The notes below the pieces were generated by a model, which searched no databases, was not told the origin of the DNA, and was given only the letters and a program-made list of their open reading frames with translations. A stretch of 64,000 bases of DNA, taken from Bdellovibrionales bacterium (GTDB lineage: Bacteria > Bdellovibrionota > Bdellovibrionia > Bdellovibrionales > DASUEL01). Within the stretch, counting starts at the first letter, position 1; every line of letters begins with the position of its first letter. The stretch is taken from contig JBFWOZ010000009.1 of assembly GCA_050250255.1 (NCBI GenBank), forward strand, positions 1 through 64,000. Reading direction: 5' to 3'. Below are positions 19,570 through 46,467 of this stretch, piece by piece. Both the position numbers and the translations under genes were made by a program.

Positions 19570-19708
19570 GCGGAGCTGTTCATTAAATAAAGGTGATTAA
19601 CTTTTAGACACGTCTGGGATCTTCTTCAGAGTGTCTTGCCTGCATTGCATAAACCTCTCTGATCATCTAAATTTCTCTCGTATATCGATTTTTTTAAAGG
19701 AGCTTGCT

Positions 19709-22051
19709 TTGAAAAAAACATCGTATTTTTTTGCGATTTTTTGTTTTGCTATTTCGTCCGTGGCTCACACACAGCAGACTCAATCTGTAGAAATGCAAGT
19801 CGCCAACGAACTTCTCGAGGCCTTTGGAGAAGGATGTTCTAATAACGGTGCGTTCAGCACAACCACACAACAGCATGGAACCACAATTGTAAGAGTACTT
19901 GAAACAATTAAAGATGCTCCTGAATGCTCCACACTTCCATACGCTGTGGCCGCTCTCAATAATGCTCAAGGCAATCTCAACGCGATTTTACAAGTCTCTC
20001 AAGAAGAGCGGGATCTCTTGGCCTCTCGTGAGCAAGAAAAAGCCATGCTTCTTGCACTCGCCGCCGCCAAAGAAGATCACACGACAACAGCGGATGATTT
20101 GTATCTCATCAAGCAAGAGCTCATCCGCGCAAAAAGTGAAGTGGCGCGCGCCCAAGAGTACGTTAATACCTATCAAAAAAATCGTGTATTGAGTTTACAA
20201 AACGAAGCTTACAACAGCCTTGTCTCCTCAACCAAATCGCTTTTTGGCCAAGGCGCTGCCAACCAACTTTGTTGGAGCGCACAGAGACAAGTACTGAGCG
20301 GCATCACGGCCGCAGCAGCCACCATTGTTTCCTCTGCGGTATCATCTTCCATATCACTTCCGCTATCTGCGGGAGCCGAGCTGGTTGGACAAATTATGGA
20401 AATCGTACGACAGTCCAGAATTAACAGACAAATTTCTAAAGTAGCAATGGGGTCGGCAACACGCGCCTATCAATGTACGATGGAGCAACTTTCTGGCCAC
20501 TGGTGTGCTGCCAGAGATGCAAAAACAATTTCCAACTTTATGCTCTCAGCTCTCTCAAATAAGCGACATAACAATGGGATTTTTGAAGCTTTAAAAGTTT
20601 TAGATCAGGAGCTTCCTGCCGTTGTGAAGTGGCTTGAGAGAGTCCGCATCGCCTCAGAACCAGCTAACGTGGCCGCGGCCAAGCAGCAAGCGTTAACGAT
20701 TTACCGTGATAGTCGTGTTAATACCTCTCTCGTGCTTGGCCTCGGAGTGGTGAAACAGCATAAACCTTTATTTGCTGCGAAACCTACCAAAGAACAAAAG
20801 TGGTTTGAAATTCGCAATACCATTGACGATATTCTGCAACAAACTGATGCGGCCTCTTACTTCAATATGCAGTACGGAAGTATCGTAAATCCCATTTATC
20901 AAATTTATAGTCCTAGTATCGCTCCCTACATTCTTCTTGGCCGAGCCAGCAACGATATTCCACGTGATCAAAATGGAAATCTTATCCCTTGGGCTTCGTT
21001 CAACGCCCTTGATCCAAAAGACTGGGGTAAACCTACCGTTTATGATCCTAATATTGATCAGCTAGAACAGCAGTTTCGTCAGTGGATGAAACTCGCTGCC
21101 GAATCTACAAAAGGCGAAATGCAGCAGGATCTTCAATCAAACCCTTTACTTATTATTCAAGAATTTTTTGATATTGATGTGGATGACAGCTCTGTTGCTT
21201 CTTCACTCAATGAAATTATTGTGTACCTGGAAACAAAAATGAGTCCCGACCAACGTAACTCCGTCAATAAAAGATACTACGGTCTTACACTTAATCAGTT
21301 GAAACAAATTAAAATGGCCATGGATGAAGCCAACAACGTACCTCCAGAAACCTGTATTCGTCGAAACAGTTCCGCAGGCAGTACAGTTTGTCAGAGTGAT
21401 ATCGATGCCATTGGACGTGTCGCCAACATTGCAAATCTCAATCTTGGCGTAACAGAATTCCAAGACGCCGTCACACGTCTTATGCGGGTGAACATTAACA
21501 AAATCATTCAAACAGGCATTCTCGATGACGATCTTGAAACGGTCCTCGTAGGTTCTTACGATGTTCTTCGAGAACTAGATAACCTCCGCGGTGCCGGTGG
21601 TCCGCAAGCGGTCATCAAAGATGCCAACGCCGCACAGAGTTCGACACAAGATACACTTAATGCCTTTGGTGATACTTTTGCTGACGGTATGAGAAAAGTC
21701 CTTGAGAACTATAATTCAAAAATCGCTCAAGCAAGGGAAGCAGGCGACAAAGAAGCTAACACACGCATGAAGGCTGATTTATGCTTTAAGCTTCTTGCTC
21801 TTCCTATTTGGCCCACTAAAAAAATTCCAACCAACCTCTGCGAAGGTGTGAAAATGGTATCTGACCTCACCGGCGGCCCGGATATGAAAGTTTGGAAGAA
21901 GGAACTTATTAACGAAAAGTTCCTCGAGCGCGCCTGTATTTATCATGACTTCGAACGAGATGAAGACATCTTTGCGAGAAATTGTGCTAGAAAAGGGCGT
22001 GGCTGCGAAGGCGGAAACCCCAAACTCAAATTCAACAAAAGTCTTCAATAA
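19709..22051 (+). CDS. Large secreted hypothetical protein (coiled coil plus internal hydrophobic segment)
   Basis: AAGGAG then TTG 19709; signal peptide MKKTSYFFAIFCFAISSVAHT; about 780 aa, several Cys. Confidence 0.8.
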   Translation: MKKTSYFFAIFCFAISSVAHTQQTQSVEMQVANELLEAFGEGCSNNGAFSTTTQQHGTTIVRVLETIKDAPECSTLPYAVAALNNAQGNLNAILQVSQEERDLLASREQEKAMLLALAAAKEDHTTTADDLYLIKQELIRAKSEVARAQEYVNTYQKNRVLSLQNEAYNSLVSSTKSLFGQGAANQLCWSAQRQVLSGITAAAATIVSSAVSSSISLPLSAGAELVGQIMEIVRQSRINRQISKVAMGSATRAYQCTMEQLSGHWCAARDAKTISNFMLSALSNKRHNNGIFEALKVLDQELPAVVKWLERVRIASEPANVAAAKQQALTIYRDSRVNTSLVLGLGVVKQHKPLFAAKPTKEQKWFEIRNTIDDILQQTDAASYFNMQYGSIVNPIYQIYSPSIAPYILLGRASNDIPRDQNGNLIPWASFNALDPKDWGKPTVYDPNIDQLEQQFRQWMKLAAESTKGEMQQDLQSNPLLIIQEFFDIDVDDSSVASSLNEIIVYLETKMSPDQRNSVNKRYYGLTLNQLKQIKMAMDEANNVPPETCIRRNSSAGSTVCQSDIDAIGRVANIANLNLGVTEFQDAVTRLMRVNINKIIQTGILDDDLETVLVGSYDVLRELDNLRGAGGPQAVIKDANAAQSSTQDTLNAFGDTFADGMRKVLENYNSKIAQAREAGDKEANTRMKADLCFKLLALPIWPTKKIPTNLCEGVKMVSDLTGGPDMKVWKKELINEKFLERACIYHDFERDEDIFARNCARKGRGCEGGNPKLKFNKSLQ

Positions 22052-29128: not shown

Positions 29129-32050
29129 TTATTGAAGATCTAATTCTACGATTTTATCGTTACAAATAAAAACGGCCTGTGCGGGTGTCGTATCTGTTGC
29201 TCGTCGGAAGTTCTGCTCCTTACATCCATTTGAAACATAGATACGACTTTGCGCAGGTTTCACGAGTCCATTTTCGCCAGCCACTATAACCTCAACGGCA
29301 CCGTTGAGGTTATAGCTTGGTGCATAGGCAGCAAGTTTACCATCCACTTCGAGAGGAAAAAAGAATCCCTCATAGAGAAGTGAAGGAAGAAAACTAAAAC
29401 GGTTCGCGCTTAGCGCGTAGGTTTTTCCGGTGATTAGGTTTTTGTAAACCAGATCGTACTGTGAAAGAGCAAACACTTCTTTTTGCTGAGTTTCATACTT
29501 CGCACCAATAATTTTAAGCAAAGAATCCAACTTATTAATGGGGCTAAGCACAAAATCTTCAGATAATATGTCTGAGTTACGCGTATGAATGAAAGTGATT
29601 TTTTGCTGCCCAGGAAGAGCTGGGCCCGCAAAAGACTTTACGGATGGATTTTGAGTAAATAAATCTGGAGCCGTTAAACCTTCTAATAGACGGAACTGAC
29701 TTAGACCAATTTTGACTTCGTTTTTCTTACCTTCAATTAAATCCGTAATCTTTTGAGTGACATAATAAAAATTTTCAAAGCTACTGCCTTTTAAATACAA
29801 CACCAGATCATCAAAGGTTGTAAGCGCTAGTGTGTCCTTAGGATCTGGAATAACTCTTAATCCTTCTTCAGCAAGATAATAAATATGAAAAGTTCGTTTC
29901 TTATCAGGGTTTGGATCACGTGGCGTAGGCCTAGGCATATCTAAAGGAGGAATTTCTCCCATACCTTTAAAGAAAATACGTTCAAAACCTTTAAGAAGAA
30001 CCCATGAATATTGATCGGGGAGTGCCGTAATCTTTTGATCCAAGAGAACGTAGGATTTATCGCCAAATGCGACAAGTGGTTTTAAGAAACGATCACGGTA
30101 ATGAATTTCAGTACCGTTAAACGAATCGGTTCCACCACTACTTACAGTAAAGAAAAACACGAGATCCGCAATACCATCTCGGTTTAAATCTCTTTGCTCT
30201 ACCTTAATTAGAGTGCTTTCAAAATCACCCTCTTTAACTGATTCGCCAACGCCCAAAGTTTCTTCCGTCACGACACGGTAGACGTTCATATCTCGGCGGA
30301 GCAATCGATAAGACCATTTTCTATTTTCTAATTTCTTTACTAGAAGAAAATCTGTTGATCCGTCGATAGAACGATACTCTTCACCTTCCTGAAGCGACAC
30401 GCCTTGGATTTGGAAAACGCTGACACCTTTTTGTTCTGGCTGTAAAAGAGCCAAAGTTGGGACCATGATTTGCAATTGAAGTTTATAAGTCGAGATCACT
30501 TTCCCGTCAGATAACACGTCTAATTTTAATTGATCTTCGCCGCTTTGTGACTCATTTACTGGGTATCTGAAGAGAATTGTTTTTTGAACACCCTTTGGCC
30601 AAAGATCAATTTTCTCTGTTGAAACCTGCAGTTCCGTACCATCGCTCGTTCGTGACGCGCGGAAAGAAATATTTTTTCCGTCAAGCCATAGATTTTTTAA
30701 AAGAACCTGACCCATAACGAAAGGATTTTTACGATCCCAGAGGAGACGAATATCTTCCTGTTTCACAGGATAAATGAGAGCTTGTGGTGTTAGTTGAAAA
30801 CTTTTTTCCATGTCCAGATTACCAGACAACAGAGTTTTATTTTGCCATGTTTGGAACTGAGAAGCTCTTGGCTCACGAGCACCCAAAATAAGTCGCGCGA
30901 AGGCCTCTTGCGGCGAAATCTCTTGAGAGAGCATCATTGCGAGAGCTCCTGCTACAAACGGAGCAGCCATACTCGTACCGTTTTTATATTCATAACCGTA
31001 GCGGATATAATATTTTTTAGGTCTAATCGTAGTAGGGTAAGTGCTTAAAATACTAAAACCTGGTGCCGCAATATCCGCGAGGCTACCAAAATTTGAAAAA
31101 TGGCTAACAGCTCCATCAGGTCCATAAGAAGCGACGCAAATCACTTGAGCGTAAGCACATGGAAGAATTGGCTGATTCGCCGAATCGTTTCCAGCTGCGG
31201 AAACAATCATCACTCCATTTTTTTGAGCATAATCAAGGATCTCACGAATTGTTTTTTGGTTAGGGTCAATAATCGCAGGCCAGCCGATAGAGATGTTAAT
31301 GACCTTTGCGCCAGATCGAATGGCGTAAACAATCCCACGAGAAATAGCTGTGACAAAACCTCTTTGCTTTGAAAGCTCCGAGTCCAATGGTAATCCATCA
31401 CTCGTTTGTTCAAGAGTGCCCATGGGGCCCGTGGGAGTTTGACCCGAACCAATCACTTTTACAGGAAGAATCTTAACAAATCCCGTAGCAAGACCTTTAG
31501 TCACACCACCGGCACCAGATGCAGAAATAATCCCGGCGATGTGAGTGCCGTGACCCGCTTGATCTTGAACGTTAAAACTACCACGAGTTCCATCACCTTC
31601 TTTTGCTGTAAAATTAAATCCATTACAATCAAGAGGGTAACCATTCTTATCAGTGTCAACTACACCCGTTGTTTTTTCACATTGGATGATCTTTGGTTTA
31701 TCTAATTTTGCCTCTTTTAAACAAGCAAGATGAGCTTTTAACGCCTCACACTCAGTAGGTTTAGTGGCGATGTAAGGAGCCAATTCTGGATGATCTACTT
31801 GCACACCCGTATCGACAACAGCAACAATAATTTCCTTCTTTGGAGTGGCCGGAAGATTTCGTAAACGAAGATCTTCGCCCACCACCGCCGGGAATTCAAT
31901 GGTTTTTAAATCTTCTAAATCCACAGGTACAGAAGCACCTTGATTATTGAAGTACCACAGAGAGTCAGGTCCATTTGCATTTACGATGCTGATTCCACTT
32001 AGAATCACAATTAGGGAGGCCAGGAGAATTTTGATTTTTACATGTTTCAT
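29129..32050 (-). CDS. Secreted subtilisin-like S8 protease with long C-terminal extension
   Basis: VAVVDTG, GHGTHIAG, AAGND, GTSMAAP; signal peptide. Confidence 0.92.
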   Translation of the reverse strand: MKHVKIKILLASLIVILSGISIVNANGPDSLWYFNNQGASVPVDLEDLKTIEFPAVVGEDLRLRNLPATPKKEIIVAVVDTGVQVDHPELAPYIATKPTECEALKAHLACLKEAKLDKPKIIQCEKTTGVVDTDKNGYPLDCNGFNFTAKEGDGTRGSFNVQDQAGHGTHIAGIISASGAGGVTKGLATGFVKILPVKVIGSGQTPTGPMGTLEQTSDGLPLDSELSKQRGFVTAISRGIVYAIRSGAKVINISIGWPAIIDPNQKTIREILDYAQKNGVMIVSAAGNDSANQPILPCAYAQVICVASYGPDGAVSHFSNFGSLADIAAPGFSILSTYPTTIRPKKYYIRYGYEYKNGTSMAAPFVAGALAMMLSQEISPQEAFARLILGAREPRASQFQTWQNKTLLSGNLDMEKSFQLTPQALIYPVKQEDIRLLWDRKNPFVMGQVLLKNLWLDGKNISFRASRTSDGTELQVSTEKIDLWPKGVQKTILFRYPVNESQSGEDQLKLDVLSDGKVISTYKLQLQIMVPTLALLQPEQKGVSVFQIQGVSLQEGEEYRSIDGSTDFLLVKKLENRKWSYRLLRRDMNVYRVVTEETLGVGESVKEGDFESTLIKVEQRDLNRDGIADLVFFFTVSSGGTDSFNGTEIHYRDRFLKPLVAFGDKSYVLLDQKITALPDQYSWVLLKGFERIFFKGMGEIPPLDMPRPTPRDPNPDKKRTFHIYYLAEEGLRVIPDPKDTLALTTFDDLVLYLKGSSFENFYYVTQKITDLIEGKKNEVKIGLSQFRLLEGLTAPDLFTQNPSVKSFAGPALPGQQKITFIHTRNSDILSEDFVLSPINKLDSLLKIIGAKYETQQKEVFALSQYDLVYKNLITGKTYALSANRFSFLPSLLYEGFFFPLEVDGKLAAYAPSYNLNGAVEVIVAGENGLVKPAQSRIYVSNGCKEQNFRRATDTTPAQAVFICNDKIVELDLQ

Positions 32051-32059
32051 AATTACTCC

Positions 32060-35000
32060 TTAAAATCCATCGCCTAAATAACGACCAAATAACTCGTAAG
32101 CGAGAATTTTATATTTTTTGACAAATTGTCCAAAGATCCCTTGTTCCAGTTCCGTGCTGTAGGTTCCTAAAGAATCAGAGAAGTACTCTTGTCCGCCTTC
32201 TAAATTCATGCGCTCATCATTTTTTCTAAAACCATTCACTCGAACCTGAAAGAAATAATTCTCATAACCTAAAATTTTTAGCACTTCGTAGAGTGGAAGC
32301 TGGCCTTGCAAAAGATCAACGATTTGATTTTGGATCTTAATAATATCTTTTTTCTCCACAGGAGGCGCATTCCTAAACTCAAGGAGTCTCTGCATCCAAG
32401 GGAGAAGGCAAGGGTACTGCTGTTCAGCATTGATACTCGCCAAAAAACTTCTGTAGGCTGGATTCGCTAACGTGAATACCTTTGCGTTCTTACATTGCGT
32501 TTCATAAGCATGTCGACCGCCGATTTCAATCAACCGAGACACGACTTGCGCCTCTTGTCCTCTTTGACCCGCCTTTAAAAACTCTCTGCGAATTTTTTCC
32601 AAGCCCGACGGATAAACAACTAACTGAGACTTGATTTCATAAAGCTGAAAATCCGTTACTTCGTTAAAAACTTCTTTTCTCATGAAAGGATGCCCAAGGT
32701 TGAGGCCCGATACACTTCTTTCAATAGAATCAATAATTTTATAAAAGTCTTTTTTCTTTAAGTTCCAACCGGTCCAGTAGTTTTCGCTAATGGTGACGGG
32801 GTGAAAACTTTGACCGTCTGTCACTTCCGCTTCTGTAGAAATCGTCGACCACTTGGCTTTACCTGCAACAGATGTAAGATTATTTCCACCGACTCCTCCT
32901 GGCCCAAACCCTGGGGCCGCAGCATTCACGATGTCGGAGAGAAGAGAGTAATAATTAACACCGCTTCGGCGTACTTTTCTGACAGAGAAAAGATGCGCAT
33001 CGTATTTTTCTTCTGTGACGTTTTCTTGTTCGCTTTTAGGTGCTCCATCTAAGGGACGAAATTTTAAAGAAACCGTATGTGCTTCATCGAGAGTATCTTT
33101 CTTTAAAAAGAGAAAGGAGAAACGACTCGACCTTGAAGAGTAATCGTGACCTAATCGGTAGGGAAGGTAGTTACTCTCTAAAAGTTCTGGGCTATTTCCG
33201 CGAATAAGACCTCTTAACGCTAAACCAATTTTCACATTTCGCTTGTAACCTTCAGAATCGAATTTTCCTGTTGGTTTTTCATCCCCTTCTTTAAAGTCGA
33301 TGATGTAGGCACGAGTTTTAGCCACTGCTTTTTTCGGACTGCTTGCGAAGTTTATAATATCAATCCAGAATGAAAGACCAAAATCATGGCTTACGGCACC
33401 AGAAGCAGCGTCTGTAAGATAGATGTGAAAACCGTCGGCCGTACGAGTGATATAGGTCTTTCGAAGCATAATGAGGTTTCCAGATACCCCATAACGAGCT
33501 ACAAATTCTTGTCCGAGCATGACTGGGATACCCAAAATAGCTGAGATGGGAATTGCAGCCGAGGCTCCGGCACCACCGCCGATAGAGTCAGTAACTATGA
33601 AAGTTTCTCCCACTTTCATAGCTTTCGCGAAAGCATCAAAAGACTTTTCGTATTCTTCATCTTTTAAGTCCGCTTTAATCAAATCGCCAAGCCCCAACAT
33701 AAAATTCAAAACATGAATGTCGTCGCGCGGTTCATTTTCCACCGCAGCTAAACTCGGAAGCGCTCGAACGTGAGCGAAGTCCCGCCGATAAAATACGTTC
33801 GCTGAAGCGGTAGGGAGAACATTTTCTTGAGATGTGTTTGTTAAAAAATAACCAAGAGACGCCTGGACAGCTAAAGAGTCGACGAGTTGAATCTTTGAAT
33901 CCACACCATAATAAGTTCCAGAAGAAACGGAACGACCAGCTTGGATGCTTGCACCCGCCAGCATCCCGCCCCAGGTATCTAACGGAAAACTGCCTGGAGC
34001 TTCAGGATTTTCGATGTAGCGTTGAATGAACTCTTCAATATCTTTACCCCGACCAGCCGTGATGTCTTCGATCGTTTTCGCCGGAAATTTCTTTGTAATC
34101 GCCTCGAGAACTTTTGAAAGCCCAATACCTTGAGCCTCAAGTCTCATAAATTTCGCAATTTCACCAAGACGAATAGGCGACTCTACATCACCAAAGGTAA
34201 AACGCACGCTGATTCCAGGATAAAATTCTTGGGTCGCTTTACCATTCACTACTTTACCGACGTTCACTTGTGTTTCAAATGGCATTTGCGGAAACTCTGC
34301 TCCAAGTCCTGCTAAATGAATGAGATGGTTACGTCTTGAAATAAGTTTTTCAAGAAAAAGAGCGGCAATATCTGATGGATAGGCACCAGCCGTTACGATT
34401 TCTTCAAAATCTTTGCGAGTGAGTTTTGCAATTTTTCGAGCGACCCAACGAATGTCTTGGTAATCCGTATCTGTAAATTCATTGGCGAATACCTGGTTCA
34501 TGACAAGAAGGTTATTCACGACCTTACCCATTTCCCAACCAAACATATTCACGTTTTCTGGCATATCCGCCAAAACAAAGAGAGTAATCAAAGCTCGTGT
34601 AGAGCGCTTGCTACCTACGAAACTTTTCTGCGCAACGCCCCAATGAAATTGCGGAACGGTGAGATCAGCAGGCTCCAAGATGACATCTTGCAAAGTAACT
34701 TCTGAGTTTTCAGTATTTTTGCGATCGGTCTCAGGAATCCAGCGTAGACCGTCACTGAGTGTATCTGCAGAAAGTTTGTTAATGAACCGTTGGCGACATT
34801 CTTCTTTCGTTGTGCCACAGAAATTCTTTTCTAATTTTACCTTAAGAAGCGGGTAGTGTTTAATTGCGCTTGTGTTGTAGCCCACTTTTCTCATGAGAGC
34901 ACTGCGCACTAAAGCGCCATGTCCCTGAGGGCTTACCCAAAGGATGAAGTTTCGTCCCTGACTATCGATGACCGTCATGCGCGAAACGCTCAGAAGGTCT

Positions 35001-35323
35001 CCGACCTTCACCGCACCTAAACTAGAATCGTACTCGACCTCAGATTTTTCTGGAAAAGATATTGCGACACGCTTAGGGTCTGTTGGCCAAAGGTTGTTAG
35101 GCTCAGGATCGAGTTGGCTAAGATCTACTTTGTTTTTTAAAAGTTCTGCTGCTTGATCTGAATCAATCGTTTTTCCTTGGTACTGAAGATCATTAGCGGG
35201 GCGCTTTGCGCGGTTGACGGGGATTGCGACCGAAGCAGCAAACACCCAATTTGGCAACGCAAGGATTAAAAACACTCCTGCAAGAAAACGAGTCAAAAAT
35301 TTATTCGTCGAATTCTTCGCCAT
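32060..35323 (-). CDS. Large secreted protein, catalytically degenerate paralogue of the 1..3786 kinase-fold protein
   Basis: Signal peptide; DLSQLDP..LW, DIRWVAR..YP..LISRRNHL and MKVGETFI..IGGGAG blocks match the 1..3786 ORF. Confidence 0.8.
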   Translation of the reverse strand: MAKNSTNKFLTRFLAGVFLILALPNWVFAASVAIPVNRAKRPANDLQYQGKTIDSDQAAELLKNKVDLSQLDPEPNNLWPTDPKRVAISFPEKSEVEYDSSLGAVKVGDLLSVSRMTVIDSQGRNFILWVSPQGHGALVRSALMRKVGYNTSAIKHYPLLKVKLEKNFCGTTKEECRQRFINKLSADTLSDGLRWIPETDRKNTENSEVTLQDVILEPADLTVPQFHWGVAQKSFVGSKRSTRALITLFVLADMPENVNMFGWEMGKVVNNLLVMNQVFANEFTDTDYQDIRWVARKIAKLTRKDFEEIVTAGAYPSDIAALFLEKLISRRNHLIHLAGLGAEFPQMPFETQVNVGKVVNGKATQEFYPGISVRFTFGDVESPIRLGEIAKFMRLEAQGIGLSKVLEAITKKFPAKTIEDITAGRGKDIEEFIQRYIENPEAPGSFPLDTWGGMLAGASIQAGRSVSSGTYYGVDSKIQLVDSLAVQASLGYFLTNTSQENVLPTASANVFYRRDFAHVRALPSLAAVENEPRDDIHVLNFMLGLGDLIKADLKDEEYEKSFDAFAKAMKVGETFIVTDSIGGGAGASAAIPISAILGIPVMLGQEFVARYGVSGNLIMLRKTYITRTADGFHIYLTDAASGAVSHDFGLSFWIDIINFASSPKKAVAKTRAYIIDFKEGDEKPTGKFDSEGYKRNVKIGLALRGLIRGNSPELLESNYLPYRLGHDYSSRSSRFSFLFLKKDTLDEAHTVSLKFRPLDGAPKSEQENVTEEKYDAHLFSVRKVRRSGVNYYSLLSDIVNAAAPGFGPGGVGGNNLTSVAGKAKWSTISTEAEVTDGQSFHPVTISENYWTGWNLKKKDFYKIIDSIERSVSGLNLGHPFMRKEVFNEVTDFQLYEIKSQLVVYPSGLEKIRREFLKAGQRGQEAQVVSRLIEIGGRHAYETQCKNAKVFTLANPAYRSFLASINAEQQYPCLLPWMQRLLEFRNAPPVEKKDIIKIQNQIVDLLQGQLPLYEVLKILGYENYFFQVRVNGFRKNDERMNLEGGQEYFSDSLGTYSTELEQGIFGQFVKKYKILAYELFGRYLGDGF

Positions 35324-35510: not shown

Positions 35511-36530
35511 TTAGTTCATAAGGCTGCCGTAAAAGAAGCCGAGAACTTCTCTCATTGTCTCTGGACTTGTTCTCCAGTTTTGAGCAGCTTCACCAACAAG
35601 GGAATCCATCTCCTTCAAAGCAAGCTCCGTCTTTCCATCACGAGCCATGAGGGCTACGTCTTCAATACGACCGAGCTCAATTCCATAAACACGCTTAGAA
35701 AAAGCAGCCATGTCAGCATGCGTACGAGCGCGCTTAGAACCGATCTCTGACCAATCAACGAGTGAAGCAGCAGCTTGTTCGCTGACATCTGCATCTAAAG
35801 AGAACTTTGCCTGAAGAACTTCAGAGATACCCTTTACTTGATCGGCACGTTGTTCAGCAATTGTGCCCATGACATCTTGACCTTGTTGTCCACCCGTAGC
35901 GCGAGCAAGGTTTAGTGCTGTTCCATTATAACCATATTCAACGCCAGAAGGGCTACGCATGAACATATCATTAAGCGTATTTACATTTCCTGGCTGCGTT
36001 GTTCTCCATCCGAAATTCCACCCACCTAATTGATTCTCGTAAAACGTTTTTGAAAGATGCCAATCTCTAACATTAATTTCTCGTCCATCTGGCGTTTTCA
36101 CATAATGTTCGTAATTCGTAAATGTTTCGATGTATTCATGAACACGTTCCACAAAACCACCCTCACAAACGCTTTGCACAACTCTCGCGCAAGGATCCCA
36201 TTCATTTTGGATCTCAGTCTTTAATCTTGTGTCCTGAAAGGTTTTAAAACTAAAAGAAAAACCATTTAATTTAGAATAATGAGGATCTGTTTGAAGGTTG
36301 ATTTTAGAACCGTCGTATTTAAAGTTACAACCCGGTCGAGGTTCACCCTCGCTACAGATCTGCGCCATAGAGTTAAACCAAGCATTTTTATTCACATCGG
36401 GATTGTTACGAAGCACATCAAATGGATCTACTTTTGGAGCTGAACCGCCACCGCTGCCTCCTCCTCCGTTACAAGCTGACATTATTAATGCCAAGACGAA
36501 AACTAAAGTGCAATTAAAAACAAACTTCAT
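35511..36530 (-). CDS. Tandem variable lipoprotein, copy A
   Basis: Lipobox MSAC, poly-Gly tether, CSEGEPRPGC, invariant C-terminal block. Confidence 0.9.
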   Translation of the reverse strand: MKFVFNCTLVFVLALIMSACNGGGGSGGGSAPKVDPFDVLRNNPDVNKNAWFNSMAQICSEGEPRPGCNFKYDGSKINLQTDPHYSKLNGFSFSFKTFQDTRLKTEIQNEWDPCARVVQSVCEGGFVERVHEYIETFTNYEHYVKTPDGREINVRDWHLSKTFYENQLGGWNFGWRTTQPGNVNTLNDMFMRSPSGVEYGYNGTALNLARATGGQQGQDVMGTIAEQRADQVKGISEVLQAKFSLDADVSEQAAASLVDWSEIGSKRARTHADMAAFSKRVYGIELGRIEDVALMARDGKTELALKEMDSLVGEAAQNWRTSPETMREVLGFFYGSLMN

Positions 36531-36735: not shown

Positions 36736-37689
36736 TTATTGGGCCAGATTGCCGTAGAAGTAGTTTAGAACTTCTCTCATGGTCTCAGGACTTGTTCTCC
36801 AGTTTTGAGCAGCCTCACCAACAAGGGAGTCCATTTCTTTTAAAGCAAGTTCTGTTTTTCCGTCACGAGCAAGAAGAGCCACATCTTCTATGCGACCGAG
36901 CTCAATTCCATAAACACGCTTAGAAAAAGCAGCCATGTCGGCGTGCGTACGGGCGCGCTTAGAACCAATTTCAGACCAATCCACTAAAGAAGCGGCCGCT
37001 TGTTCACTGACATCTGCATCTAAAGAAAACTTCGCTTGAAGGACTTCAGAGATGCCTTTCACTTGATCGGCACGAACCTCAGCAATTGTACCCATGACGT
37101 CTTGACCTTGCTGACCACCGGCTGTGCGAGCTGCATTGATCGCAACACCGTCATAACCGTACTTCATACCAGATGGGCTTGTGATAGTTACATCACTCAC
37201 ATCAAAATGTACGCCGGTTGTTCTCCCAGCAAAAATCCAGCCGCCCAACTCTTTAGCGAAGTTTTGTTGTTGGTATCGAGTCCAATCTGCCATTGTATAA
37301 CGACCACCGCCAGGAATATGAACGAAGTAACGATAGTTTGTATAGGTTTCGCTGGTGTCTGTACAGTAACCATCGAAATCACAGCTTTCATTCCAACGTG
37401 TGGCTGTGTAAGGTTCGCGTTCAATTAAAAATCCACCATTGAGCCGGTCAATGAAAGGGTCTTCGCCTTTTGTAACCTTTGAACCATCATATTTAAAATT
37501 ACAACCTGGACGAGGTTCACCTTCGCTACAGATTTGTGCCATGGAGTTATACCAAGCATTTTTATTTACATCGGGACTATTACGGATCGTCGAAAAATAG
37601 TCTGGCGTTGAGCCTCCGCCACCACCATTACAAGCGGTCATTGCAAAAGCTGTTGCCGTCATTAAACTTATTCTTAGAAGTGTTTTCAT
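36736..37689 (-). CDS. Tandem variable lipoprotein, copy B
   Basis: Lipobox MTAC, GAGG RBS, same architecture as copy A. Confidence 0.9.
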   Translation of the reverse strand: MKTLLRISLMTATAFAMTACNGGGGGSTPDYFSTIRNSPDVNKNAWYNSMAQICSEGEPRPGCNFKYDGSKVTKGEDPFIDRLNGGFLIEREPYTATRWNESCDFDGYCTDTSETYTNYRYFVHIPGGGRYTMADWTRYQQQNFAKELGGWIFAGRTTGVHFDVSDVTITSPSGMKYGYDGVAINAARTAGGQQGQDVMGTIAEVRADQVKGISEVLQAKFSLDADVSEQAAASLVDWSEIGSKRARTHADMAAFSKRVYGIELGRIEDVALLARDGKTELALKEMDSLVGEAAQNWRTSPETMREVLNYFYGNLAQ

Positions 37690-37746: not shown

Positions 37747-38763
37747 TTATTGCATTACGTTTCCATAAAAGAAGTTTAAAACTTCTCTCATCGTCTCTGG
37801 ACTTGTTCTCCAGTTTTGAGCGGCTTCACCAACGAGGGAATCCATCTCTTTAAGAGCGAGTTCCATCTTTCCATCACGAGCCATGAGAGCTACGTCTTCA
37901 ATACGTCCTAATTCAATTCCATAAACACGCTTAGAAAACGCGGCCATATCGGCGTGCGTACGAGCGCGCTTAGAACCAATCTCTGACCAATCAACGAGTG
38001 AAGCAGCCGCTTGTTCGCTCACATCTGCATCTAAAGAGAACTTCGCTTGCAGAACTTCAGAGATACCTTTTACTTGGTCTGCACGCTGTTCAGCGATAGA
38101 ACCCATGACGTCTTTACCTGTTGTTCCACCTGCTACTTGAGCGGCGTTTAAAGCATTTCCTGCGTAAGAGTACTTCACGCCAGTAGGGCTGAGGATTGCG
38201 ATATCATTGATATCTCCACTTGAACGATGTTCGAACGACCATCCATTCAATTTATCAGCATAAAAGCGAGAGTTAAGACCCCAATCTTTTACATTATAAA
38301 TACGATTGTCAGGAGTGTTCACATAAACCATGTAGTTTGTGAAAGTTTCTACATCTGTGTAATACTCTGTATCGTAGCCACCTACACAGTAACCATCCCA
38401 ATCAACATAATCACAGGAATCCCAAACTTGTCGAGAACGTTGAACCGTTTTTGAATCTGTATAAGCAACACGCGAGAATGTGAAACCATCTAACTTAGAA
38501 TAGTGTGGATCTGCCTGTAGAGTGATTCTTGAACCATCATAACGGAAGTTACAACCTGGACGAGGTTCACCTTCGCTACAGATTTGCGCCATAGAGTTAA
38601 ACCATGCGTTTTTATTCACATCTGGATTGTTACGAAGTGCATCGAATGGATCCACTTTTGGAGGTGTACTTCCTCCGCCACCGCCGCCTTCACAAGCGAC
38701 TGCGAGCATTGCTAGAGCAACGAACGAACTGACTCTTAAAACTTTTGAAAAACCGGACTTCAT
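37747..38763 (-). CDS. Tandem variable lipoprotein, copy C
   Basis: Lipobox AVAC, same architecture as copy A. Confidence 0.9.
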   Translation of the reverse strand: MKSGFSKVLRVSSFVALAMLAVACEGGGGGGSTPPKVDPFDALRNNPDVNKNAWFNSMAQICSEGEPRPGCNFRYDGSRITLQADPHYSKLDGFTFSRVAYTDSKTVQRSRQVWDSCDYVDWDGYCVGGYDTEYYTDVETFTNYMVYVNTPDNRIYNVKDWGLNSRFYADKLNGWSFEHRSSGDINDIAILSPTGVKYSYAGNALNAAQVAGGTTGKDVMGSIAEQRADQVKGISEVLQAKFSLDADVSEQAAASLVDWSEIGSKRARTHADMAAFSKRVYGIELGRIEDVALMARDGKMELALKEMDSLVGEAAQNWRTSPETMREVLNFFYGNVMQ

Positions 38764-39006: not shown

Positions 39007-40008
39007 TTACTTCGCAAGATTCCCGTAAAAGAAGTTTAGAACTTCTCTCATGGTCTCAGGACTTGTTCTCCAGTTTTGAGCAGCTTCACCAACAAGTGAA
39101 TCCATCTCTTTCAAAGCAAGCTCTGTTTTTCCATCACGAGCAAGAAGAGCGACGTCTTCGATACGTCCTAATTCAATTCCATAAACACGCTTAGAAAAAG
39201 CAGCCATGTCAGCATGCGTACGAGCGCGCTTAGAACCGATCTCTGACCAATCAACGAGTGAAGCAGCAGCTTGTTCGCTGACATCTGCATCTAAAGAGAA
39301 CTTTGCCTGAAGAACTTCAGAGATACCCTTTACTTGATCGGCACGTTGTTCAGCAACCGTGCCCATGACGTCTTTACCATTAGTGCTACCAACCGCTTGA
39401 GCTGCGTTGAGAGCAGAACCGTCGTAGGCATACTTCACGCCAGATGGGCTCAAAATAGTAATATCGTTCACATCAGTGAACGATCCCGCCAAACGATGTT
39501 GGAAACTCCAGCCGTTGAGTGAGTAGCTTCCGCTCACAAGACCCCAGTCCTTTACGTTGAATTGTCTTCCGTCTGGAGTGTTCACAAACACATTATAATT
39601 CGTGAAGGTTTCTGTGTAAGCATATTCACGTCTCACGTAACCAGCCTGGCAAACGCCGTCTATGTCACGATATGCACAATGATCCCATTCTTCAGTTTCG
39701 CCAACACGGTAACGCTTATCGGTGAATGACGAACGTACGAATGTAAAGCCATTCAAAGTTGTATAAGCAGGATCTTCACCTAAAGAGATTTTTGATCCGT
39801 CATATTTAAAGTTACAGCCAGGACGCGCTGGTTCACCTTCGCTACACATCTGCGCCATAGAATTGTAAAATGCAGTTTTGTTTGCATCTGGATTATTTCG
39901 GAGAGCTGCAAAATAATCAGGAGTGGAACTACCGCCACCACCGCCGTTACAAGCTGTCATCACAAACGCTAACATGAGAAACAAAGAACAATTAAAAACA
40001 GATTTCAT
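39007..40008 (-). CDS. Tandem variable lipoprotein, copy D
   Basis: Lipobox MTAC, same architecture as copy A. Confidence 0.9.
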   Translation of the reverse strand: MKSVFNCSLFLMLAFVMTACNGGGGGSSTPDYFAALRNNPDANKTAFYNSMAQMCSEGEPARPGCNFKYDGSKISLGEDPAYTTLNGFTFVRSSFTDKRYRVGETEEWDHCAYRDIDGVCQAGYVRREYAYTETFTNYNVFVNTPDGRQFNVKDWGLVSGSYSLNGWSFQHRLAGSFTDVNDITILSPSGVKYAYDGSALNAAQAVGSTNGKDVMGTVAEQRADQVKGISEVLQAKFSLDADVSEQAAASLVDWSEIGSKRARTHADMAAFSKRVYGIELGRIEDVALLARDGKTELALKEMDSLVGEAAQNWRTSPETMREVLNFFYGNLAK

Positions 40009-43754: not shown

Positions 43755-45101
43755 TTATGGTTTTTTCACAGGGACAATTGAAGTTGCTGGCTTCGCTGTA
43801 GGTTTTGAGCTTTCGGGAGCAGACTTGGTTTCAGGTGTGTAACGTAGGCCTTCCTCAAACTGCACGCCTGTAAGGTCATTTAAAGAACCCACTCCCATCA
43901 AAAGTAATTTTACTTTTGTTTGGACGTTGTTTTCAGTGTCTTTCCCAGCATTAATGAGAGAGTACAGCTCATTCTGCCAAGCTTGAGAGTTCCAATCATT
44001 CGCAAAGGCCTGAACTTCCTTAGCCACTGACGCATCTCCACCAGCGCGACCTTTTACCGCTGCTTTCAAAGCCATCGCTTTAAAACGAAGTTGTGTATAA
44101 ATCGTGCGGTTCATATTGGAATCCAATGCGTCTTTATTGATAAGAAGCTCCCTCAGCGTGGTCTCCAGTACAACACCAATCGCCGACATCGCTTTCGAAG
44201 GGGCTCCTGCAAGTCCATTCGTCCATCCATAGCTCATGCGTAGTTGGCTCACAAGTTCACGAATATTTTCAATAATGAGTTGAGTCGTAGCAACATCATC
44301 ATATTCACTAAAAATTTCTTCCATCACTGTACCCATGGCCACAACCATACGGGCGGACTCTTGAACGTTTTGGTGTGTTACAGGCACCGTGATGACTTCC
44401 TTTTGTAAAACAAATGCATCCATCGCAGATTGGATAGAAGCCTTAAGTCGATCCATGTGTGGTCGGTCGGAACGTCTTAAGGAACCAGTCAGTTGGTTGA
44501 GTTGATTGAGCGTGTTCTGATAGATCGTATAAAGGCCTTGACCGGCATGACTTAGCCCAAGCGCGAGACTCTTGGGACTACCAAGAAACGCGAGGGAAAC
44601 AATAGAAAGGTATGGATTTCCATTCCTCGATAGCGTCTCCTGACAATCATATGCAAACTTTGTTACCGGTTTTTCAAATTCAAACTTGGCAGGGCCAATC
44701 GCATTCCAATGTACTACTGGAAAAGTATTAAGATCTACACTAAACGTATCTGGGCGACTTTGCCTGTAAGATCGCACCAATACAGCCGTGATTGGTAAAG
44801 TAGATTCCACGCACACACAAGTTGCTAGAGCGGCTTGACGAACAGCGGTGGAACTCGTCCCGGCCAAACCAATAGGAGCCGAATAAGTTAAGTCTCCTTT
44901 CACTACAGCATTACCAGTAATTTTAACCACACCAATACCAAAATTAATTATGCATTGTTTTTTTCCTTCACACGCACTGACAACATCGAGAACGATTTCG
45001 CCTTCTGGACTGTGAACAATCCTCTCAACTTTGCCTAGTTGTGCTTGTGAAAAAATTGGTAGCATTGAAAAAATAAATGTAAGTAGAGAAAAAATCTTCA
45101 T
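43755..45101 (-). CDS. Secreted protein E (variable N-terminal domain, conserved helical C-terminal domain)
   Basis: Signal peptide; paralogue of 45112..46407. Confidence 0.85.
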   Translation of the reverse strand: MKIFSLLTFIFSMLPIFSQAQLGKVERIVHSPEGEIVLDVVSACEGKKQCIINFGIGVVKITGNAVVKGDLTYSAPIGLAGTSSTAVRQAALATCVCVESTLPITAVLVRSYRQSRPDTFSVDLNTFPVVHWNAIGPAKFEFEKPVTKFAYDCQETLSRNGNPYLSIVSLAFLGSPKSLALGLSHAGQGLYTIYQNTLNQLNQLTGSLRRSDRPHMDRLKASIQSAMDAFVLQKEVITVPVTHQNVQESARMVVAMGTVMEEIFSEYDDVATTQLIIENIRELVSQLRMSYGWTNGLAGAPSKAMSAIGVVLETTLRELLINKDALDSNMNRTIYTQLRFKAMALKAAVKGRAGGDASVAKEVQAFANDWNSQAWQNELYSLINAGKDTENNVQTKVKLLLMGVGSLNDLTGVQFEEGLRYTPETKSAPESSKPTAKPATSIVPVKKP

Positions 45102-45111
45102 AAATAGTCCT

Positions 45112-46407
45112 TTATAGTTTTTTTACGGGGACAAGAGGGGTTACAGGTTTTGTTTCAGGTGTGTAGCGGAGGCCTTCTTCGAACTGTACGCCCGTGAGAT
45201 CATTGAGCGAAGCTACAGCCATTAAAAGTAACTTCACTTTTGTTTGAATGTTGTTTTCAGTGTCTTTACCAGCATTAATTAAGGTGTGCAGTTCGTTCTG
45301 CCACGCCTGTGAATTCCAATCCGCAGCAAACGCTTGTACTTCTTTAGATGCCGAAGCATCTCCGCCTGCACGACCTCTGACTGCCGCTTTCAGCGCCATC
45401 GCCTTAAAGCGAAGTTGAGTATAGATGACACGATTCACATTCGAGTCTGTTGCATCTTTAACCATGAGAGTCTCTCGAAGAACAGTTTCTAATACCACAC
45501 TAATTGCCGCCATTGCTTTTGATGGAGCACCCACCAAACCATTTGTCCAACCAAAACTCACTCGCAATTGATTCACTAGTTCGCGAATATTCGTTATGAT
45601 TTGTTGTGTACTCTCTATATCGTCATATTCATTAAAAATTTCTTCCATCACTGTACCCATAGCGACAGTCATGCGTGCTGATTCTAAAATATTTTGATGA
45701 GTTACAGGAACCGTTGGCACATTATTCTGCATCACAAAAGCATCCATTGCAGACTGAATCGAACTTTTCAAGCGATCCATATGAGGACGATCTGAACGCT
45801 TTAAAGAACCTGTGAGTTGATTAAGATCGACAAGAGCTTGTTCATAAACGGCAAAAAGTGATGTACTCGACGACGTAAGCGCATGAGATAAGTACTTTGG
45901 GTTATTAGAAGCGAATGCGATTGAAACAATAGAAACGCCACTTTTAACCAGACCACAATCGAATTTAAATTGTTTCACCGGAGATGGGAAATAAAACTCT
46001 GGCGAAGCATTTTCGACATAATTTGTTAAAACAGACAAATTTGAGTTGTAGGTCGTTGGAAGTGCTCCTATAGATCGAATTAAAATTCCAATAATCGGTA
46101 TATCTGAGATGACTGTTGGGCAATATGGAACTGACACATCAGAGGGTGTGCCGGCCCAACCAAGTGGAGAACGCCAAAAACCTCCAGTTGTAGTAGTACC
46201 AGTCCGACCTGTCTGTAAAAAACCGGTTATTGTTATAGAACCCTGCTCTGTTTTTATGTTGCATATTCTCTGATTTGCACAAGCTGTCGTTATGTCTATA
46301 ACGCGATAACCTTTGTTGTTGATCTTTCCTACTACCACAGATGTTTGAGCTGTCGATAAACTAGGCAGAACTGAAAATAGAATAATTATGACGAAACCAA
46401 ATCGCAT
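45112..46407 (-). CDS. Secreted protein F, paralogue of E
   Basis: GAGGAG then ATG 46407; signal peptide MRFGFVIIILFSVLPSLSTA. Confidence 0.85.
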   Translation of the reverse strand: MRFGFVIIILFSVLPSLSTAQTSVVVGKINNKGYRVIDITTACANQRICNIKTEQGSITITGFLQTGRTGTTTTGGFWRSPLGWAGTPSDVSVPYCPTVISDIPIIGILIRSIGALPTTYNSNLSVLTNYVENASPEFYFPSPVKQFKFDCGLVKSGVSIVSIAFASNNPKYLSHALTSSSTSLFAVYEQALVDLNQLTGSLKRSDRPHMDRLKSSIQSAMDAFVMQNNVPTVPVTHQNILESARMTVAMGTVMEEIFNEYDDIESTQQIITNIRELVNQLRVSFGWTNGLVGAPSKAMAAISVVLETVLRETLMVKDATDSNVNRVIYTQLRFKAMALKAAVRGRAGGDASASKEVQAFAADWNSQAWQNELHTLINAGKDTENNIQTKVKLLLMAVASLNDLTGVQFEEGLRYTPETKPVTPLVPVKKL

Positions 46408-46450
46408 ACAAAACTCCTCAAAAACATTTTCGTGGCGCGATTCTGTAGTA

Positions 46451-46467
46451 ACCAATAATCGTGCCAG
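46451..46467 (-). promoter_or_regulatory. Possible sigma54 promoter of the F-E-regulator-protease operon
   Basis: CTGGCACGATTATTGGT: perfect -24 box, -12 is TTGG instead of TTGC. Confidence 0.5.

Follow-up and report, generated by a model that had tools for sequence, protein, structure and literature searches.

Atypical kinases such as CtkA, Fam20, actin-fragmin kinase, PI4KIIa, CotH and HipA/HipT share a fold with the two kinase-related proteins described below, and Fam20A is a secretory pseudokinase of the same fold class. Treponema dentilisin, PrcB-PrcA-PrtP, is an envelope subtilase system of three genes, with lipoproteins as its accessories. In the Aeromonas ASP/ORF2 system, a prodomain-less subtilase depends on a chaperone from the adjacent gene (PMC5638518). 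Here, we analysed a 64,000-nucleotide (nt) stretch from a Bdellovibrionales bacterium (GCA_050250255.1, contig JBFWOZ010000009.1, positions 1 to 64,000; hereafter called the window), which is the start of contig C9 of a 3.1 Mb genome that is 99% complete. The window encodes P0001, a 1087-amino-acid (aa) pseudokinase–beta-sheet protein (32060..35323), followed by P0003, an S8 subtilase of 973 aa (29129..32050); all coordinates are on the minus strand unless stated otherwise. The two genes represent a real, widespread and apparently undescribed protease-plus-dedicated-partner system built from a gutted atypical kinase.

As compared to the atypical kinases, P0001 has its catalytic loop and Mg-binding segment deleted en bloc, not substituted, and is fused to a beta domain of about 600 aa; Pfam, NCBIfam and PDB sequence searches give no match for P0001 or for its kinase-type paralogue, P0002. 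In contrast to Fam20A, the conserved genetic partner of the dead kinase is a protease, not an active kinase. The arrangement is ASP/ORF2-like in that a protease without a propeptide adjoins a partner gene, in the window and at 96 of 144 loci, while the partner here is a pseudokinase of 1000–1200 aa, usually upstream, and a third of the proteases still have their prodomain. P0003 was rejected as a dentilisin PrtP (its NF033595 score is 64 bits, far below the cut-off of 300), and no dentilisin accessory family matched the pseudokinase partner in the Pfam and NCBIfam scans.

P0001 and P0003 are the orthologues of Bd2429 (Q6MKG4) and Bd2428 in Bdellovibrio bacteriovorus, a genetically tractable model predator. 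The system thereby offers a structural identity and a testable partnership for Bd2429 and Bd2427, two “uncharacterized” proteins flanking Bd2428, the protease reported from a predation mutant screen. Moreover, a large family of secreted bacterial pseudokinases comes to light, which arose as the entire catalytic segment was cleanly lost, and the system provides a natural experiment on prodomain loss in subtilases.

The kinase-like domain and its missing catalytic segment

The paralogue P0002 (1..3786) is distant from P0001, has intact kinase motifs (K311, E338, D488 and D516) and lies outside the conserved module. Its gene is incomplete at the contig end, and the sequence continues off contig C9 into the start of contig C40 (G000:C40:3-389, plus strand); since 126 of the 134 overlapping bases are identical, the two contigs probably adjoin. 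BLASTP between P0001 and P0002 yields only one high-scoring segment pair of 51 aa (E 9e-7), so family profiles were needed for the comparison. In the hhalign profile–profile alignment (88 versus 24 sequences), the two families are colinear over 848 columns (probability 100%, E 9.6e-58), and another profile comparison aligns residues 53-1037 of P0001 over 828 columns (E 9e-51). The first-pass annotation had matched the two proteins by eye and proposed HHalign as the check; the alignment proved significant, and all four of the motif pairs it named fall in register.

What has P0001 lost? The spacing between a conserved Arg and a conserved Asn is 19 aa in P0001 (R240–N259), as compared to 59 aa in P0002 (R472–N531). 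Exactly 40 aa are gone at the junction formed by P0001 residues 253-256 (34556..34567), covering D488-x-K490-x-x-N493 and D516-M-G, in agreement with the by-eye estimate of about 40 skipped residues holding DxKxxN and DMG. Among the 88 aligned relatives, the spacing is 19 in 84, 18 in one and 22 in three, and among 149 further cluster representatives it is 19 in 143, 20 in two and 22 in four; the 24 kinase-type rows span 43–68 aa. Because the spacing is short in all 237 aligned relatives, the deletion is ancestral. The column of the beta3 Lys (K311 in P0002) holds Lys or Arg in 24 of 24 kinase-type rows, and that of the alphaC Glu (E338) holds Glu in 21 of 24. In the 237 pseudokinase rows, Lys and Glu are not among the six commonest residues at the respective columns, and the first-pass annotation had likewise seen neither residue in P0001. 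The P0001 family thus lacks the hallmarks of an active kinase (the beta3 Lys, the alphaC Glu, the catalytic Asp loop and the Mg-binding DxG); K, D and D are kept together in 14 of the 24 kinase-type rows. The mapped invariant polar residues of P0001, R240, D290, W293 and R330, correspond to conserved residues of the kinase-type rows. Judged from these alignments, the loss of the catalytic stretch is clean and en bloc.

Among the long kinase-type proteins, one clade (L131, L135, L136, L138 and L140; some in tandem pairs) carries Arg at the beta3 Lys position together with a changed catalytic loop, and is possibly a second, substitution-type drift towards a pseudokinase. The genome of the window also encodes two small stand-alone members of the atypical kinase clan, one intact (G000:C58:738-1865, plus strand; 376 aa, probably with a signal peptide) and one whose coding sequence is divided between two frames (G000:C1:28320-29077, minus strand).

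The P0001 model (predicted local distance difference test, pLDDT, 90.1; predicted template modelling score 0.88) consists of a kinase-like region, helices at residues 386-438, a series of some 14 long strands interrupted by helical insertions, and a helical end. The chain starts with a likely Sec signal peptide (aa 1-29; 35237..35323), read by eye and with a hydrophobic window. The kinase-like domain (aa 46-343; 34295..35188) matches Fam20C (Z 7.6), PI4KIIa (7.5) and CtkA (7.4, 168 residues aligned); by themselves these scores are weak. The P0002 model (pLDDT 68.7) matches CtkA (Z 12.2, 215 aligned), Fam20 (11.2), PI4KIIa (11.0) and CotH (10.6), with actin-fragmin kinase within 10.6–11.2. P0002 aligns about 40 residues more than P0001 to the same targets, as the 40-aa deletion predicts. 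The models thereby assign P0001 to the bilobal, atypical kinase-like folds of the Fam20/PI4K2/CtkA class, and the profile homology to P0002 with its Z of 12.2 makes this predicted assignment firm.

The beta-meander of about 14 strands (aa 450-1033; 32225..33976) has no clear structural match, and an Atlas search with this domain gave nothing above 0.85. It is followed by a conserved C-terminal motif, GFRxGDE...SNxxG...GP (aa 1031-1063; 32135..32233), outside the region alignable with the kinase-type paralogue. The beta domain is also found without a kinase, as stand-alone proteins of about 620 aa. Five such beta-only proteins (L260-L264, about 605–640 aa) have neither a kinase nor an S8; the L262 gene is followed by lexA and an imuB/dinB-type polymerase gene, and the neighbours of L263 and L264 are similar in size.

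The P0001 family occurs in 132 of the 301 genomes of the phylum Bdellovibrionota. The P0002 profile matches 37 of these genomes, and the long kinase-type paralogue is present in at least 21 (26 matches, 5 beta-domain-only), a lower bound with two candidates scored per genome. In 10 of 10 near-complete genomes, picked for having shown no kinase-type match, scoring of all candidates found the dead form with no long active paralogue. The active/dead kinase pair that the first-pass annotation had inferred for these two genes is therefore not supported, and co-occurrence with an active paralogue, as expected of a Fam20A-type activator, is not a general trait of the family. In a tree of 30 of the 88 pseudokinase rows and all 24 kinase-type rows, the pseudokinases form one clade split from the kinase-type proteins with support 1.0, which marks the dead form, by its sequences, as a separate ancient clade. 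A profile search returned 1302 clusters (50% identity) at E<=0.001 and 580 at 1e-30, kinase-type relatives and fragments included. The Atlas places the family only in unnamed Bdellovibrionota clusters, and the named records are also Bdellovibrionota; a plasmid search returned none, as did a word-indexed search with the P0002 kinase domain. The pseudokinase gene is broken (split open reading frames or an in-frame stop) in L172 and in G049:C2:117091-119079, sequencing error not excluded.

The conserved protease and lipoprotein genes

P0003 matches PF00082 (E 4e-38) and has an intact D80/H167/S360/N288 set, no prodomain, and a C-terminal region of about 550 aa without a Pfam match. Its gene begins after the 9-nt spacer (32051..32059) that the first-pass annotation had given, and the operon proposed there is supported. 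The spacer carries the ribosome site of P0003, whose AGGAG overlaps the P0001 stop codon, and translational coupling of the two genes is likely from this layout.

Is the gene pair conserved? In all of the 30 top pseudokinase loci, an S8 gene lies directly downstream. Among 179 loci with longer flanks, some of which duplicate one another or members of the first 30, the S8 gene is downstream in 162, upstream in three and absent in six, and the flanks of eight are too short to tell. The pair is thus held in 165 of 171 informative loci; L116 was not counted as a pair, its S8 being small and encoded on the other strand. The gaps are mostly overlaps or <=15 nt. None of 20 kinase-type loci has an S8 neighbour, and none of the 20 stands beside a pseudokinase–S8 module. 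Moreover, 71 of the 87 well-supported splits in the pseudokinase tree recur in the S8 tree.

The partner proteases keep the Asp/His/Ser triad with the oxyanion Asn, the triad being the same in all 55 compared. Of the 144 partner S8 proteins, 96 have no segment the size of a prodomain and 48 do have one, with at least 15 changes of state on their tree; the S8 proteins of the window and of B. bacteriovorus both lack it. Among the other S8 proteins of the same genome, 10 of the 13 scorable ones have >=135 residues before the catalytic Asp. The genome contains at least 16 further S8-like open reading frames.

A third conserved module gene, overlooked in the first-pass annotation, encodes a lipoprotein of the Bd2427 family. 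Of 143 complete pairs, 113 have a homologue in the stretch of locus retrieved, 76 of them downstream and 37 upstream, and in 110 of the 113 it is on the same strand; many of the other 30 pairs have short flanks. The family was not found at the kinase-type loci, and has no meaningful Pfam match. The window holds four tandem copies upstream of the P0001 gene, at 35511..36530, 36736..37689, 37747..38763 and 39007..40008. Relative to copy 1, the first of these, the others show 94% identity over residues 215-339 and 29–47% over residues 70-190. This near-identity beside a variable middle suggests that the helical C-terminal part may be a fixed docking part and the middle a variable part.

We also searched for traces of contact in the sequences. 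A home-made covariation analysis of 144 gene pairs gave no credible pseudokinase–S8 signal, with plausible intra-chain contacts recovered; the top pair, K43–S283, is largely the contribution of one clade. A lipoprotein–pseudokinase cluster (7 of the top 40 pairs, residues 337-376) is not above the neighbour-swap controls, in which the best windows of nine runs held 5–19 pairs, and one run placed 16 in residues 337-376.

Proposed role of the module in predation

The named B. bacteriovorus loci cluster with Q6MKG4/CAE80243 and CAE80242. Published data (PMC3898049, PMC11003981, PMC12546842) equate Q6MKG4 with Bd2429, Q6MKG5 with Bd2428 and Q6MKG6 with Bd2427 (301 aa), and the position and length of the 301-aa lipoprotein homologue would make it Bd2427. 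The Bd2429 and Bd2428 genes overlap by 4 nt (PMC3627812), and few reads are given there for either, under incomplete column headings. On prey entry, the transcripts of Bd2429 (2.3/2.0-fold, in the predation-specific sheet), Bd2428 (2.6/2.3) and Bd2427 (14/11) rise (PMC2797640), and the same paper refers to Tudor et al. for a predation mutant with a transposon in Bd2428. The Bd2428 protein was found in the supernatant, presumed cleaved (PMC3898049). In the proteome time course of PMC12546842, Bd2429 (43 peptides) and Bd2428 (25) increase from 30 min, peak at 1–2 h and are down by 5 h, and the difference between them stays within 1.3–1.8 units over 11 time points. From these data, the module seems to act early during growth inside prey.

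The searchable main text of PMC12546842 (all but one scanned file) names none of Bd2427, Bd2428 and Bd2429, and term searches of PMC12034629 and PMC3526173 return no mention of them. In our literature search, Bd2429/Q6MKG4 and Bd2427 have no main-text occurrence, and the papers retrieved on Bdellovibrio pseudokinases and on subtilisin operons or invasion do not describe the module, nor is it among the matches listed for atypical and secreted kinases. No description of the module was found in the published literature covered, that is, outside subscription papers and bioRxiv supplements.

How might a dead kinase serve a protease? We propose a secreted three-part protease module of pseudokinase, S8 and lipoprotein, in which the dead kinase–beta protein is the non-catalytic binding partner of the protease; we hold this reading to be evenly poised between right and wrong. 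It retains, as the most likely role, the scaffold or chaperone that the first-pass annotation had suggested for the dead copy. First, P0001 would be exported through Sec and would bind the S8 protease at about 1:1. It would then escort, restrain or position the protease, and such a partner could have allowed the S8 proteins to drop their own prodomain repeatedly. Finally, the lipoprotein may tether the pair to the predator envelope, or aim it, and the module is likely in use while the predator grows inside prey. Here we infer the binding, its site and the prey target.

Several observations weigh against this proposal. The 48 of 144 partner proteases that keep a prodomain together with their pseudokinase imply that the latter is not merely a prodomain substitute, and six loci have no S8 neighbour. 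Shared trees and parallel abundance are expected for any operon. In the P0001 model, the C-terminus is predicted to be ordered (pLDDT ~83), unlike a free inhibitory tail. The kiss-of-death dataset of PMC11003981 contains Bd2428 and Bd2427 (2 peptides each), not Bd2429, and Bd2427 peaks at 3 h, after the Bd2429/Bd2428 pair (PMC12546842). In pooled transposon sequencing (PMC6561027), the probable 109J orthologues, EP01_RS08230 (“serin protease”) and RS08235, mapped from name and position, have W values of 1.1–1.9 and thus no predation defect; the module is probably non-essential in pooled laboratory predation.

An extended form of the proposal is tentative and probably reaches too far. It holds that the gutted kinase and a new beta-sheet fold form the obligate partner of the subtilase, possibly its cleavage-activated membrane-attacking substrate, within a predator-specific secreted machine; swappable lipoproteins with variable middles would direct this machine towards prey, and in the paralogues live atypical kinases would be the cargo of the same beta module.

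That P0001 is instead a dedicated S8 substrate, a pro-effector whose amphipathic beta-hairpins, once cut free, would bind or enter the membranes of the prey, the dead kinase being a relic of an earlier kinase payload, is rather unlikely. Strands 474-496, 574-592, 607-627 and 631-652 alternate hydrophobic with small or polar residues, some tips are hydrophobic, and the low-confidence loops 681-690, 801-820 and 941-970 are possible cut sites; in addition, the beta domain carries an intact kinase in the paralogues and also stands alone, like a delivery module. However, the S8 neighbour is absent for the kinase-type and stand-alone forms, and the weak covariation pairs 484-867, 490/511-907 and 577/581-798/799 suggest that helices cover the hydrophobic face. 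Foldseek gave nothing at E<=0.001 and hence no clear pore-former match, which is not an exclusion.

We consider it improbable that the genes merely share a pathway, acting separately on a common prey target under co-regulation. A conserved operon and parallel abundance need no binding, but the adjacency is kept at ~20–30% identity across many families, with overlapping stop and start codons and with the order flipped in three loci. Such persistent adjacency is more typical of interacting subunits.

A split autotransporter or two-partner secretion arrangement, with the beta domain as an outer-membrane barrel by which the S8 is exported or displayed, is decidedly improbable. Although outer-membrane barrels are the best structural rows for the beta domain, with autotransporter domains first (Z up to 10.9; Foldseek ranks 1-2), these matches are loose and generic (root-mean-square deviation 5–8 Å; template modelling score ~0.3, E>=0.018) and dozens of unrelated barrels tie; moreover, the chain end is helical with no terminal beta strand, and both faces of the later strands are polar.

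Lastly, a Fam20A-like role, with the dead copy as a bound activator of the intact paralogue, is highly improbable and largely refuted as a general role: the fold class is common to Fam20, both genes lie on one contig here and Fam20A/Fam20C is a precedent, but the genes are 28 kb apart, none of the 20 kinase-type loci stands beside the module, and the ten near-complete genomes chosen have the dead form and no long active paralogue.

Other genes of the window

The window encodes, at 19631-22051 (plus strand), a protein of 806 aa that matches neither Pfam nor NCBIfam families and probably has a signal peptide. Two tandem paralogues of 448 and 447 aa at 43755-46455 (minus strand), without a Pfam match, have likely signal peptides and match each other with E 1e-145.

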